Assembly: GCA_964355175.1 (NCBI GenBank)
Contig: CAYHBZ010000001.1
Location: 64,445 to 128,444, forward strand
Direction: 5' to 3'
Origin: an uncultured Gammaproteobacteria bacterium
Lineage (GTDB): Bacteria > Patescibacteriota > Patescibacteriia > Magasanikbacterales > GWA2-37-8
DNA length: 64,000 nt
A program made the translations under genes and the position numbers. Positions 25,985 through 31,122 of this stretch are shown piece by piece. The first letter of the stretch is position 1. Each line of letters starts with the position of its first letter. The notes beneath the pieces were generated by a model, which was not told the DNA's origin, made no database searches, and was given only the letters and a program-made list of their open reading frames with translations.

Positions 25985-26012
25985 TTCAATCCGCCAGGTT
26001 ATTGCGCATACT

Positions 26013-26071
26013 GTCATCCCGAGCATGGCGAGGGATCTTACAAAAGATTCCTCACATTCGTTCGGAATGAC
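26013..26071. repeat. palindromic intergenic repeat, copy B (GTCATCCCGAGCA...TTCGGAATGAC)
   Basis: inverted repeat between atpE and atpF. Confidence 0.8.
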
Positions 26072-26119
26072 AAAGTAATAAAAATAATCTGGCCCATTTG
26101 AAAAATTTCTAAATATATT

Positions 26120-26689
26120 ATGACTTTTACTAATATCGCATACGCTTCTGAAACAGCTGAAAAAACTAACACTACCGAAGAAGGTGTTGCCAATGACAGT
26201 GTTTTGGCTAGTCTTGGGATTAATGGTACTTTGTTTGTAGCTCAATTGGTGAACTTTACTTTGGTTGCTCTAATTTTATGGTTCTTGATTCTAAAACCAC
26301 TTACCAAAAAAATGTCCGAACGCCAGAAAATGATTGATGACAGCATCGACAATGCCAAAAAAATTCAAGACAACCTCAACAAGAGCGAAAAAGAATATCA
26401 GACCCGTATTGATCAAGCTAAAGTAGAATCCAATAAACTTCTAGAAAAAGCCGCAAACGAATCCGAAGTGATGGTAGAAGAAGCCAAAACTAATGCCAAG
26501 ACTGAAATCGAACGCCTAGTATCACAAGCTCGCGACAGCATTAAAGCAGAAAAAGAAACTATGCAGGTGCAACTCAAAGAAGAAACTGCAAACTTTGTGG
26601 TTTTGGCACTCGAAAAAATCTTGGGTGAAAAAGTAAATGACACTTCTGACAAAAAATTAATTGATGAAGTTTTGAAAAAATTGAAATAA
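26120..26689 (+). CDS. atpF: F0F1 ATP synthase subunit b
   Basis: single N-terminal TM followed by a long charged helix. Confidence 0.75.
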   Translation: MTFTNIAYASETAEKTNTTEEGVANDSVLASLGINGTLFVAQLVNFTLVALILWFLILKPLTKKMSERQKMIDDSIDNAKKIQDNLNKSEKEYQTRIDQAKVESNKLLEKAANESEVMVEEAKTNAKTEIERLVSQARDSIKAEKETMQVQLKEETANFVVLALEKILGEKVNDTSDKKLIDEVLKKLK

Positions 26690-26710
26690 AATAGAAAATA
26701 AAGTTAAAGT

Positions 26711-27097
26711 ATGGCAAAAAATACGCCGAAAATTTACGCTGCTGCCTTATTGAAAAGTATTGTTGGATTATCTGATAAGAACTTGAGCACAACCCTAAAA
26801 AACTTTGTCGCTTTGGTAGCTCGCGAACACAAACTCAAACAGATGCCGAGAATTATCAATGAGTTTGTGCGCCTCGCCAAAAAAGAAGAGGGGATACAAG
26901 AGATAGAAATCCAGACGGCTAGAAAATTGGACGAAAAAACAATTGAAAAAATAAAACATATTTTCGGAAAAGATACAGAGGCCACGACTGAAATAGATGA
27001 AAGCCTACTCGGTGGAGTAAAGATAAAAACCGGTGATAAAATTCTCGACGGCAGCCTCAAAACCCAATTAAATAAATTAAAACAAACTCTAATCTAG
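26711..27097 (+). CDS. atpH: F0F1 ATP synthase subunit delta (short OSCP)
   Basis: C-terminal [26 protein letters not shown] signature; operon position. Confidence 0.7.
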
Positions 27098-27101
27098 TAA
27101 T

Positions 27102-28592
27102 ATGTCCATAAATTCCATTGTTGAAGAACTAAAAAAGAATATCTCCGCTTTTGAAAAACAAGTTGAAGTGGAAGAAGTTGGTACTGTGATCGAAGTAGGT
27201 GATGGTATCGCTAGACTTTCCGGCCTGGAAAAATGTCAGGCGTCTGAGATGCTTGAATTCCCAGGCGGCACATTTGGTGTAGCCCTAAACTTGGAAGAAG
27301 AAACTGTTGGTGCGGTATTGCTTGGTGAATTTAAACATATTAAAGAAGGCGATACTGTGAAGCGCACTGGTCGTATTTTATCTGTACCGGTAGGTGAACA
27401 GATGATTGGTCGTGTTGTAAATCCACTTGGTCAATTTATCGACGGTGGTGCAGATGTAAAACCAAAAACTTTTTACCCAATTGAAAAAATCGCTCCGGGC
27501 GTAATGTTGCGTGAACCAATTTCTCAGCCAGTACAAACCGGTATCAAAGCGATCGACGCGATGATTCCAGTTGGTCGTGGTCAGCGTGAATTGATCATCG
27601 GCGATCGCCAGACTGGTAAGACCGCGATTGCCATTGATACAATCATCAACCAAAAAGGCCAGAACATGATCTGTGTTTATGTAGCGATCGGACAGAAAGA
27701 ATCCAAAGTTGCTCGTATCGTACAAAAACTAAAAGAAGCGGGTGCAATGGAATATACTGTGATCGTGGTAGCCGGCGCTTCGGCTCCAGCTGCGCTTTCA
27801 TATATCGCTCCATACTCTGGTGTATCTATTGCTGAATATTTCATGGATCAGGGCAAAGACGTACTCGTAGTATATGATGATCTTTCCAAACAAGCTTGGG
27901 CATATCGTGAAATTTCCTTGCTATTGCGCCGCCCACCAGGTCGTGAAGCTTATCCTGGAGATGTTTTCTATTTACACTCTCGTTTACTTGAGCGCGCTTG
28001 TCGCCGCAATGCTGAATCCGGCGGTGGATCTATTACTGCTTTGCCGATTATTGAAACTCAGGCCGGTGATATCTCCGCTTATATTCCTACTAATGTTATT
28101 TCCATTACCGATGGTCAGATTTTCTTGGAAACAGATTTATTCTTCCGTGGTATTCGCCCAGCTTTGAATGTGGGTTATTCCGTATCGCGTGTCGGTGGTG
28201 CCGCTCAGAACAAACCAATGAAAAAAGTAGCTGGTAAATTAAAATTGGCGATGGCTCAATTCCGTGAACTTGAAGCTTTCTCCCAATTTGCCTCTGATTT
28301 GGATCCAGAAACAAAAAAACAAATTGATCTTGGTCAACGCTTGGTAGAAATTTTGAAACAACCACAATATCAACCTTTGGCTGTAGCGAACCAGGTAGCG
28401 ATTATCTACGCTGTGTCCAATGGTTTTGCCAATCACATTGCTCCAAAAGATATCGTGACTTACGAAGCCAAATTCCATATCTTCATGAATAAAACCAAAT
28501 CCGCTTTGCTTGAAAAAATTGCTGGTGGAGCTTGGGATGAAAAAGTAGAAGGTGAATTAAAAGAAGCTACTTCTGATTTTAATAAACAATAA
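27102..28592 (+). CDS. atpA: F0F1 ATP synthase subunit alpha
   Basis: Walker A GDRQTGKT; full-length alpha homology. Confidence 0.95.
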
Positions 28593-28655: not shown

Positions 28656-29597
28656 ATGGCCGTAAATACCAAAGTAATTAAACGCCGCATCAAATCCGTC
28701 TCTTCCACCAAGAAGATTACCAAAGCGATGGAAATGGTAGCGGCCGCCAAAATGCGCAAAGCGGTAGATACTGCCTTGCGTACCCGCACCTATGCCAAAT
28801 TGGCTTGGGATATTTTGGTAGATCTATCCAAAACAGCGGATGTAAAAATTCCATTACTGGAAGTACGCCCGGTAAAAAATGTTTTGGTAATTTTAGTTAC
28901 TTCCAACCGCGGCTTGTGCGGCAGTTTCAATTCCAATATTATTAAAAAAACTTCCATTCAATTAAAAAATCCAGATAACTTGGGTATACAGAATATTGAA
29001 GGAAAGATTTTAAAAACCGATAAAGTAAATATTGATGTACTCGGTATCGGCAAAAAGGGTGCGGAATTTGCTAAAAGAAATAATTATAATTTGGTCGCAT
29101 CTTTTAATACTTTTTCCGATACTCCAAGTCTAAATGATATTTTACCAATTAGTCAGATGGTAATAGATCAATACTCCAAGAAAAAATATGACAAAGTAGT
29201 GGTGGCTTATACCGCTTTCAAATCTGCCATTTCTCAAACTGCTAAATTAAAACAAGTATTACCAATTTCTCCGATTGATCTGGAAAGTATAATAGGGGAT
29301 GCTTCAGTAGAAAAAACTCTACTTGAAGAAGAAAAATCCGAAGACAGATTATTTGAACCAAATCCACAAGAAGTTTTAGAAACTATTTTACCACGCTTGG
29401 TAGAAACAGAATTACTACAAGCCACGCTAGAATCCAGCGCCTCCGAACACAGTGCTCGTATGATGGCCATGCGCAGTGCCTCTGATGCCGCATCTGATAT
29501 GATCTCTGAGCTGAACCTCAATTTCAATAAAGCCCGCCAAGCCGCCATCACGCAAGAAATTGCCGAGATTGCCGGTGGAGCCGCCGCTCTAGAATAA
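28656..29597 (+). CDS. atpG: F0F1 ATP synthase subunit gamma
   Basis: N-terminal IKRRIKSVSSTKKITKAMEMVAAAKMRKA and C-terminal ITQEIAEI. Confidence 0.9.
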   Translation: MAVNTKVIKRRIKSVSSTKKITKAMEMVAAAKMRKAVDTALRTRTYAKLAWDILVDLSKTADVKIPLLEVRPVKNVLVILVTSNRGLCGSFNSNIIKKTSIQLKNPDNLGIQNIEGKILKTDKVNIDVLGIGKKGAEFAKRNNYNLVASFNTFSDTPSLNDILPISQMVIDQYSKKKYDKVVVAYTAFKSAISQTAKLKQVLPISPIDLESIIGDASVEKTLLEEEKSEDRLFEPNPQEVLETILPRLVETELLQATLESSASEHSARMMAMRSASDAASDMISELNLNFNKARQAAITQEIAEIAGGAAALE

Positions 29598-29606
29598 TTA
29601 ATAACT

Positions 29607-29662
29607 GTCATTCCGAACGCAGTGAGGAATCTTAGAAGATCCCTAGTTACACTCGGGATGAC
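29607..29662. repeat. palindromic intergenic repeat, copy D (GTCATTCCGAACGCAGTGAGGAATC...ACTCGGGATGAC)
   Basis: inverted repeat between atpG and atpD. Confidence 0.8.
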
Positions 29663-29699
29663 AATACTAAACTAAAAAAAATTAAATAACCGAACATAT

Positions 29700-31073
29700 A
29701 TGACACATAATAAAGGAAAAATTTCACAGATTATCGGTGTGGTGATCGATGTAAAATTCGATGACAAACTACCGGAAATTTATAACGCTTTAGAAATCAA
29801 ACTTCCGAAAGGCGGAAAATTGGTACTCGAAGTGCAACAGCATCGCGGCAATAATGTCGTGCGTACTATCGCTATGAGCACCACCGATGGTCTCGAACGT
29901 GGTATGGAAGTCACCGACACCGGCGCTCCAATCACTGTACCAGTAGGTCCTTTGACTCTTGGTCGCATGTTCAATGTAGTCGGCGAAGCCATCGACAACA
30001 AAGAAGAAGTAAAATCCGAAAAGAAATATCCGATTCACCGCTCCGCCCCAACTTTTAAAGAACAATCCACTAAATACGAAATTCTAGAAACAGGTATCAA
30101 AGTTATCGATCTTATCTGTCCTTTCTTAAAAGGTGGTAAGATTGGTCTTTTTGGTGGTGCGGGTGTAGGTAAAACTGTAGTTATCCAGGAATTGATCCGC
30201 AACATCGCTCAGGAACACGGTGGCTACTCCATGTTTGCCGGTGTAGGTGAACGCTCCCGTGAAGGTAACGATCTATATCGTGAAATGAAAGAAAGCGGCG
30301 TACTCGACAAGACCGCTTTGGTTTTTGGTCAAATGAATGAACCACCAGGTGCGCGTGCTCGCGTGGCTCTTACCGCTTTGGCCATGGCCGAATATTTCCG
30401 TGATGAAGAAGGCCGCGATCTTTTACTTTTCGTAGATAATATTTTCCGTTTCACTCAGGCTGGATCCGAGCTCTCTGCTTTGCTTGGTCGTATGCCTTCG
30501 GCTGTAGGTTATCAGCCTACTTTGGCTTCGGAAATGGGCTTGCTACAAGAACGTATCACCTCTACCGATAAAGGCTCTATCACTTCCGTACAGGCAGTAT
30601 ATGTGCCAGCTGATGATCTTACCGATCCAGCTCCAGCAACTACTTTTGCCCACTTGGATTCCACTGTGACTTTGAACCGCTCTCTTTCTGAACTTGGTAT
30701 TTATCCAGCTGTGGATCCGCTCGATTCTTCTTCCACCATGCTTGATCCAAATATCGTAGGTGAAGATCATTACCGCACTGCTTTGGAAGTTCAAAAAGTT
30801 TTACAGCGCTATAAAGATTTGCAAGATATCATCGCCATCTTGGGTATGGAAGAATTGTCCGAAGAAGATCGCCTCATGGTGACTCGCGCTCGCAAGATCC
30901 AGAAATTTTTGTCCCAGCCATTCTTCGTAGCGGAAGTATTTACCGGCTCTCCTGGTAAATATGTTCGCCTCGCTGATACCGTCCGCGGTTTCCGTGAAAT
31001 TTTGGATGGTAAACATGATCACAAAAATGAACAAGCCTTCTATATGAAAGGCTCCATCGAAGAGGTTGTCTAG
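29700..31073 (+). CDS. atpD: F0F1 ATP synthase subunit beta
   Basis: Walker A GGAGVGKT; DELSEEDR motif. Confidence 0.95.
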
Positions 31074-31076
31074 TCC

Positions 31077-31106
31077 GTCATTCTGAGCGTAGCAAAGAAT
31101 CCCTTT
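31077..31106. repeat. half copy (left arm only) of the palindromic repeat family, copy E
   Basis: GTCATTCTGAGCGTAGCAAAGAATCCCTTT directly after the atpD stop; no right arm. Confidence 0.65.
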
Positions 31107-31122
31107 CACTCAAACAAAAATT

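Follow-up and report, generated by a model that had tools for sequence, protein, structure and literature searches.

Repetitive extragenic palindromic (REP) sequences of the CGTC superfamily, which includes dRS3 of Neisseria and RPE-4 and RPE-6 of Rickettsia, are short tagged hairpins in which the terminal CGTC is often replaced by TGTC (a CCTC variant also occurs) and is followed by a stem of 8-9 bp starting with A,T, a loop of 4-5 nt and a CCA tail (Di Nocera, De Gregorio and Rocco 2013, PMC3733652). They occur mostly as inverted dimers, frequently as heterodimers, close behind the stop codon of the upstream open reading frame (ORF) and between co-directional or convergent ORFs; intragenic copies are found in some species, and no dedicated transposase is associated with them (PMC3733652). 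Small single-domain GIY-YIG nucleases of the Ssn type (cd10448) cleave the NTS of Neisseria, which contains dRS3, and the SRM hairpins related to it when these are present as single-stranded DNA (ssDNA). SsnA shows no interaction with RNA, ssn genes usually have the repeats on either side, and the combination of SsnA and NTS reduces transformation of Neisseria about 5-fold (Chenal et al. 2025, PMC11893778). Here, we describe a palindromic repeat from a 64,000-nt stretch of contig CAYHBZ010000001.1 (hereafter the window), which carries a complete F-type ATP synthase operon in the order atpZ-B-E-F-H-A-G-D-C on the + strand. The host can be assigned to the Candidate Phyla Radiation (CPR/Patescibacteria), its nearest named relatives being metagenome-assembled genomes (MAGs) of Candidatus Magasanikbacteria. 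We consider it probable that the repeats are non-autonomous, CGTC/TGTC-tagged REP copies that were inserted recently and are recognized as hairpins in ssDNA, and that they are not a device for setting the stoichiometry of the ATP synthase subunits.

Six repeat loci are present in the window, five of them inverted dimers and one a single unit, and four of the six lie in the atp operon (Table 1). All are situated between co-directional ORFs, 0-33 nt past the upstream stop codon (2-27 nt for the atp copies). The dimer at the atpA-atpG junction, for example, begins 5 nt past the atpA stop and finishes 10 nt ahead of the atpG ATG, and the dimer at 46506-46566 begins immediately past the upstream stop codon. 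The same set of 11 half-units in 64 kb was recovered by a mismatch search, a regular expression, a structural scan and a covariance model. The preliminary description of this DNA had placed the element at exactly the atpE-atpF, atpA-atpG, atpG-atpD and atpD-atpC junctions of the operon, and four scans confirm this placement. The mismatch search returned 15 loose matches in the 64-kb window against 4.4 expected, and under the covariance model, whose training set included the 11 window units, the units score 39-45 bits and the next best site in the window 11 bits. A generic scanner for tagged hairpins, which accepted any arms of 9 nt and loops of at most 50 nt, gave 167 sites against 162-195 in shuffled sequence and was discarded, and a tighter scanner, with 53 sites observed against 4-11 in shuffles, was adopted. 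No Rfam family reached its gathering score anywhere in the window, and permissive E-values over the operon yielded only sub-threshold matches, to the hairpin after atpC. An origin of the repeat from tRNA or tmRNA was also considered and none was found. The junction sequences are identical in three independent assemblies, and the repeat copies are therefore not an assembly artefact.

The unit is a 25-nt tagged hairpin, YGTC-ATYYY-GA-NN-loop-NN-GA-RRRAT-C, and not one long palindrome. It consists of an unpaired 5' YGTC (TGTC in nine and CGTC in two of the 11 window units), a 5-bp stem ATYYY/RRRAT, G-A opposite A-G, two more pairs, a loop of 3 nt (nine units) or 4 nt (two units), and an invariant C after the stem that is followed by TT or CC; variants with loops of 10-45 nt are found in relatives. 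The stem spans 9 positions, of which the first two are A-T and then T-A, positions 6-7 are G.A/A.G mismatches, and the seven others are Watson-Crick or G-U pairs. Two such units in inverted orientation, their tags facing outward, make up an element of about 50-60 nt. When 16 units were aligned (11 from the window and five from relatives), 98.2% of the pair cells held standard pairs and compensatory changes were seen in six of the seven pairs; none of 500 shuffles equalled the observed pairing, and sliding the partner by 1-3 columns left 23-54% paired. While the stems vary among these units, the GTCA tag, the G.A positions and the ATC tail do not change. The halves of a dimer are often unlike (ATTCC versus ATCCC), so that each is perfectly paired internally while the long hairpin is mismatched: the 5-bp stems differ between the halves in three of the five dimers and by a single base in one, and the inner pairs or the loop differ in all five.

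As sense-strand RNA, the five full dimers fold at -32.2, -31.2, -18.9, -22.1 and -26.4 kcal/mol; the values for the atp dimers are -31.2 (atpE-atpF), -18.9 (atpA-atpG) and -22.1 kcal/mol (atpG-atpD), with z of -3.8 to -5.7. The antisense strand of the dimers folds equally well or better, and neither G-U pairing nor folding energy at the elements revealed a bias toward one strand. Covariation at the level of the half-unit, together with the lack of a sense-strand bias, points to recognition of the element as a DNA hairpin. The copy at the atpD-atpC junction stands apart. Its decayed right half reads CACTCAA and then ACAAAAATT where GATGACA is expected, and since it folds at just -3.7 kcal/mol (z = -0.2), it is no real hairpin.

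We compared the atp junctions with those of relatives whose AtpG is 95% (L084), 86% (L087 and L088), 85% (L085 and L086) and 83% identical (L089 and L090), reading each spacer only in relatives whose contigs span that junction. Element-free spacers in these relatives measure 2-13 nt at atpA-atpG, 35-40 nt at atpG-atpD and 8 nt at atpD-atpC. The atpA-atpG site is empty in L085, where the two genes are 2 nt apart, and in L087 and L089, and the atpG-atpD site is empty in L084, L085 and L087; in L089 the latter holds an additional 126-aa ORF and no element. Comparison of filled with empty sites revealed A/T-rich flanks and no consistent target-site duplication or fixed insertion motif. As relatives whose AtpG is 83-95% identical have empty sites, the insertions are recent, and this comparison shows the four atp copies to be lineage-specific additions to ancestrally short junctions.

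At the atpE-atpF junction, the relatives have just a native hairpin and no element. Located immediately past the atpE stop codon, this hairpin keeps its position, with covarying stems, across Magasanikbacteria-like genomes (L085, 7489-7544; L087, 4558-4616; L089, 586-641), the stems being different in sequence yet complementary (GCCCGATGA/TCGTCGGGC, GGCCCGATCA/TGGTCGGACC and GGTTTGATCAC/GTGGTCAAACC), and more distant relatives likewise have comparable G+C-rich hairpins after atpE. In the window, the repeat sits in the loop of the native hairpin, and the composite folds at -49.8 kcal/mol. The alignment of these junctions shows one copy as an insertion into the loop of the native post-atpE hairpin. 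This hairpin is, among the operons compared, the sole structure conserved at an atp junction, and it would be a more likely candidate than the repeats for a true regulator of the c-subunit mRNA.

In their sequence features, the window repeats match members of the CGTC/TGTC-tagged REP superfamily, which would be new in the CPR phylum. The likeness covers the unpaired CGTC/TGTC tag, the A-T/T-A start of a stem of about 9 positions and the C-initial tail; it extends to the loci, which are mostly inverted dimers, often heterodimers, just past a stop codon between co-directional ORFs, to an in-frame intragenic copy (in atpG of the relative L009) and to the absence of a transposase adjoining the copies. 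The window units differ in that stem positions 6-7 are a conserved tandem G.A/A.G and not Watson-Crick pairs, in that the tail is CTT or CCC versus CCA, and in their host, a CPR/Patescibacteria member with a genome of about 1 Mb from a phylum outside the published survey (PMC3733652). With NTS and SRM, the window units share an HGTCWY head, a hairpin and an ATC-type tail, which give them an orientation, and the clustering of many copies around particular genes, whereas NTS has a fully paired stem that is rich in G+C.

Other classes of small repeats resemble the window element less closely. The GTAG REPs of E. coli and Pseudomonas, with their BIME and REPIN arrangements, are likewise short, tagged, imperfect palindromes in inverted doublets that can fold into one long or two small hairpins, and they are extragenic inside operons, where they can stabilize upstream mRNA segments (malE-malF). 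However, the tag is YGTC in all window units and not GTAG, and the half-unit is smaller. No RAYT gene was seen beside the copies, where the adjoining genes are housekeeping genes, although the ORFs of the window were not all scanned systematically against Pfam. The Correia elements (CREE) found in Neisseria and miniature inverted-repeat transposable elements of the ERIC/RUP type are also small inverted repeats that are co-transcribed with their neighbors and can alter mRNA processing, but they are 100-150 bp long with terminal inverted repeats and target-site duplications, in contrast to the 25-nt hairpin unit of the window with no clear duplication. The comparison with REP elements drawn in the preliminary description is well founded in that these are tagged, REP-class palindromic repeats inside a co-directional operon.

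Structural and model-based scans of 68 related loci found further members of the family in atp operons, often with larger loops. Repeats are present at atpF-atpH, atpA-atpG, atpG-atpD and atpD-atpC in L112, with none in 13 kb of flanks; at atpF-atpH, atpH-atpA (twice) and atpG-atpD in L007; at atpE-atpF, atpH-atpA and in frame within atpG in L009; at atpA-atpG in L008 and L093; at atpF-atpH in L094, L021 and, as a variant, L011; at atpG-atpD in L101, L131 and L132; and at atpE-atpF in L098 (1018-1095). The L098 copy is near-canonical NTS, one part of its inverted dimer being nearly identical to the NTS of Neisseria meningitidis (TGTCATTCCCGCGAAGGCGGGAATCC). Counted by lineage, occupancy is 0 at atpZ-atpB, 0 at atpB-atpE, 3 at atpE-atpF, 5 at atpF-atpH, 2 at atpH-atpA, 4 at atpA-atpG, 6 at atpG-atpD and 2 at atpD-atpC. 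Every junction from atpE-atpF onward is occupied in some lineage, most often atpG-atpD, which follows the single-copy gamma gene, and the sequences compared show the occupied junctions to vary between lineages.

Two further observations concern the spread of the family. The intragenic copy of L009 (8333-8445, within atpG at 8001-9023) is an in-frame dimer that adds about 38 residues (…VIPTTRALRSVQAPEESLAHSNDGQRSLVGASLTRDDK…) to a protein whose remainder aligns end to end, and it is reminiscent of the palindromic elements that Rickettsia carries within genes. Family units are also seen in contigs from outside the CPR, for example a Chloroflexi MAG (L031:14547-14728; L131:10904-10929; L132:10949-10978, 12953-13038 and 17783-17857), and in L131 and L132 they again lie between atpG and atpD; these units fit a very wide phyletic spread of the family.

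A candidate partner protein is suggested by the relative L007, whose atpG-atpD junction holds a 98-aa single-domain GIY-YIG gene (Pfam; 9089-9385). The gene is flanked on both sides (8984-9075 and 9391-9478) by TGTCAT-tagged dimers (TGTCATYCTGAA...TTCAGRATCT), and L007 is the only one among the related loci fetched that matched a GIY-YIG hidden Markov model (HMM) built from 120 homologues. A GIY-YIG protein with 93% identity is encoded between uvrA and uvrC in L171-176 (L171:4001-4300), with two dimers on each side. The GIY-YIG genes of L007 and L171 together with these sister repeats look like a mobile Ssn-repeat cassette in CPR genomes.

We hypothesize that the unit is maintained since a protein would recognize it as a hairpin in ssDNA. 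By analogy, this protein is most likely an Ssn-type GIY-YIG nuclease; the atpG-atpD junction of a CPR relative holds a gene of this kind, flanked by sister repeats. The copies may have spread by an Ssn-linked or related ssDNA route, possibly locally. The copies lie inside a co-directional operon and are therefore transcribed, and the three full atp dimers fold in the mRNA. As a side effect, the folded dimers could plausibly shield upstream segments from 3' exonucleases. At the atpA-atpG junction, a tight junction has been replaced by a 63-nt structured spacer, and the AAGG that relatives have in the 3' end of atpA just ahead of the atpG start is lacking in the window; the element may here break the tight coupling of atpA and atpG, again as a plausible side effect. 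The repeats may plausibly also affect the decay of the mRNA or translational coupling in a secondary way.

The preliminary description had gone further and had taken the placement of the copies to reflect the junctions at which differential subunit stoichiometry is needed, with the hairpins acting as partial terminators or as determinants of RNA processing and stability. Read in this way, the hairpins would be exapted mRNA punctuation, serving as 3' stabilizers or RNase sites, uncoupling translation and tuning the amounts of the c, alpha, gamma, beta and epsilon subunits. REPs do tune segment amounts in the malEFG operon of E. coli. The portrayal of the copies as palindromic hairpins holds for three of the four, which fold stably on the sense strand at -19 to -32 kcal/mol (the value reaches -50 kcal/mol when the native stem is included), and fails for the half-unit at atpD-atpC. 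The short distances to the stop codons, the concentration of copies in the atp operons of the window and L112, and the conservation of a hairpin after atpE in relatives, by which structure at that junction matters, also speak for punctuation, and it is common for the segments of an operon to decay differently under the guidance of 3' structures (PMC5927463). However, the match to stoichiometry does not discriminate, because every atp junction changes stoichiometry, the element-free ones included (the a/c junction most of all). Relatives with 83-95% identical AtpG run their operons without the elements, with junctions of 2-40 nt, and the preliminary description had itself named a finding of this kind in relatives as grounds for refuting its reading. 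The occupied junctions differ from lineage to lineage, with copies at atpF-atpH, at atpH-atpA and inside atpG in other CPR lineages, the junction used most often lies behind the gene of the single-copy gamma subunit, and the pairing shows no sense-strand bias; a stoichiometric rationale for the placement is thus not supported. Moreover, Liang, Rudd and Deutscher reportedly found in 2015 that REPs no farther than about 15 nt from a stop codon reduce expression of the upstream gene, in which case REPs near the stops would lower, not raise, alpha and beta. Taken as a whole, we regard mRNA punctuation as an unlikely explanation of the repeats.

Stable hairpins between cistrons could also be partial intrinsic (Rho-independent) terminators that attenuate transcription stepwise along the operon, and this we hold to be extremely improbable. 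The terminator scan gave no site at any copy, and no copy is followed by a U-tract, or by a T-run on the sense strand; the sequence downstream of the atp copies is A-rich and the stems are A/T-rich with internal loops. An actual terminator-like hairpin stands after atpC, where a perfect 19-bp stem with T/A runs is likely the terminator of the operon and not related to the repeat. In a role at the DNA level, the repeats would bracket genes as in the NTS-gene-NTS arrangement of Neisseria, and Ssn would cut incoming or exposed ssDNA at them; the length of recombination tracts would thereby be limited and the atp operon divided into modules of exchange, in an organism that depends on DNA uptake. 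Such a role would accord with the tagged-hairpin architecture common to NTS and SRM, with the near-canonical NTS at atpE-atpF of the CPR relative L098, with the ssn-like cassettes between sister repeats in CPR relatives and with the effect of SsnA and NTS on transformation in Neisseria (PMC11893778). We nevertheless judge such a role highly unlikely, as no ssn gene was seen in the 64-kb window, the units fail the published SRM pattern, and local spread could equally well account for clustering near particular genes.

Several points weigh against our preferred explanation, that of recently inserted, ssDNA-recognized REP copies. The window loops of 3-4 nt are shorter than the 4-5 nt of the CGTC REPs. 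The pattern HGTCWYN(0-2)YYVSBRHN(0-5)WNVSBRGN(0-2)RNCYNB derived for SRM matched none of the 11 units and one unrelated site in the window; it misses the units because their inner stem has G.A mismatches and not G-C pairs. The GIY-YIG HMM found no Ssn/GIY-YIG homologue in the 64-kb window. We know of no transposition mechanism for CGTC REPs. Four of the six window copies, furthermore, lie in one 6.9-kb operon (p ~0.001, post hoc), and the independent lineage L112 shares the occupancy of atpA-atpG, atpG-atpD and atpD-atpC, with its flanks free of copies; the clustering in L112 and the window is not predicted by pure neutrality.

Enrichment of the family in atp operons is suggestive. Half of the eight atp junctions of the window are filled, versus 2 of its 61 other junctions (Fisher one-sided p = 0.0011, a post hoc test on the very window that had been flagged beforehand). 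In the pooled relatives, atp spans make up 42% of the sequence and contain about 20 element loci, with about 18 outside them; this is not significant. The pattern is heterogeneous: all or most copies are in the operon in the window, L112 and L007, and this is not so in L009, L092 and L132. Clustering of the L112 type could result from selection or from insertion bias, be it local spread or exposure of ssDNA in a highly transcribed operon, and if a cassette had once resided in the operon, local spread from it would account for the clustering as well as selection would. The independent lineages of the window, L112 and L007 have filled three or four atp junctions with nearly empty flanks, and for this reason one may ask whether the CPR atp operon is a preferred site of landing and retention for Ssn-driven repeats, possibly co-opted as RNA punctuation or as boundaries of ssDNA recombination. 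We think this decidedly improbable; if true, repeats would serve as operon-internal RNA punctuation in place of translational coupling, or would modularize recombination of the atp genes in organisms that depend on DNA uptake.

Under the explanation that we favor, an apparently designed regulatory layout is reassigned to recent insertions of a known repeat class, which counsels caution against over-reading the hairpins of operons. In CPR genomes, which are about 1 Mb in size, selfish DNA is considered scarce. The range of the CGTC/TGTC-tagged (NTS/SRM-like) REP family would now extend to the Candidate Phyla Radiation, and probably that of its GIY-YIG nuclease partners likewise. The atp operons of the CPR accommodate hairpin dimers, small genes for nucleases and even, in gamma, an insertion in frame, and they would be a convenient natural system in which to study the effects of insertions on operon expression.

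The features of the window are collected in Table 1. Gene identities in the operon were taken from the window ORFs and from precomputed Pfam matches on identical or near-identical proteins. The atpB-atpE, atpF-atpH and atpH-atpA junctions had been described as tight and free of the element; all three are element-free, and atpF-atpH (21 nt) and atpH-atpA (4 nt) are indeed tight, whereas the atpB-atpE spacer is 47 nt long when counted from the atpE ATG at 25763.

Table 1. Features of the ATP synthase operon and copies of the repeat, in window coordinates
Feature	Position	Strand	Basis or remark
atpZ/atpI (ATPase_gene1)	24660-24929	+	ORF; PF09527 on identical protein in contig L001
atpB (subunit a)	24936-25715	+	ORF; PF00119
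atpE (subunit c, 73 aa)	25763-25984	+	L001 gene call with PF00137; sequence
Native post-atpE hairpin	25993-26093	+	arms 25993-26003 (GCCAGGTTATT) and 26083-26093 (AATAATCTGGC); split by repeat
REP heterodimer in atpE-atpF	26012-26072	.	half-units 26012-26037 (+) and 26046-26072 (-); regular expression, structural scan, folding, covariance model
atpF (subunit b)	26120-26689	+	ORF; PF00430
atpH (delta/OSCP)	26711-27097	+	ORF; PF00213
atpA (alpha)	27102-28592	+	ORF; Pfam match on identical or near-identical protein
Compact REP homodimer in atpA-atpG	28598-28645	.	halves have central AAGATCTT in common
atpG (gamma)	28656-29597	+	ORF; PF00231
REP heterodimer in atpG-atpD	29606-29663	.	8 nt past atpG stop
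atpD (beta)	29700-31073	+	ORF; PF00006 on homologues
Single REP half-unit and degenerate truncated right half in atpD-atpC	31076-31116	+	half-unit 31076-31101
atpC (epsilon)	31123-31557	+	ORF; PF02823 on homologues
Perfect 19-bp hairpin with T/A runs after atpC	31560-31602	.	likely operon terminator; unrelated to repeat
REP dimer outside operon	13891-13960	.	between thiI and RNase H-like exonuclease gene
REP dimer outside operon	46506-46566	.	between cytidylyltransferase gene and Ham1-NUDIX gene

Internal promoters arising from the ATGACA ends were also looked for, and no sense-strand match was found at the elements. The outward ATGACA end of the atpA-atpG element gives a promoter-like match of 10/12 on the antisense strand (window 28576-28603, -). 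Two independent short-read contigs, L001 (end 11803) and L002 (end 2905), share an end exactly 759 nt inside atpD, and that of a third contig, L003 (end 2857), falls at most 50 nt from this break, which corresponds to about window position 30458; such shared contig ends inside atpD suggest strain variation or a repeat-like break in assembly.

The atp junctions of relatives also hold insertions of other kinds. A gene for a PF05635 protein (23S rRNA-intervening-sequence protein) lies at atpG-atpD in L042 (2639-3031), L009 (9057-9443) and L011 (5024-5410), and L011 has an A/T-rich palindromic repeat of its own (AGTTTATTAGTTTAATAGTT-like) beside the PF05635 gene and again at atpH-atpA and atpD-atpC. 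A PD-(D/E)XK (PDDEXK_3) gene and several ORFs of 95-143 aa without a Pfam match are inserted in atp junctions of relatives, the small-gene insertions being found at atpD-atpC in L007 (11171-11599) and at atpA-atpG in L005 (7706-7993), L006 (7556-7987) and L009 (7684-7998). Further insertions at atpG-atpD are seen in L089 (4065-4445) and in L013 (5918-7481), where a 1.9-kb block of three ORFs is present. The atp junctions of the CPR thus seem to accept many kinds of insertion.

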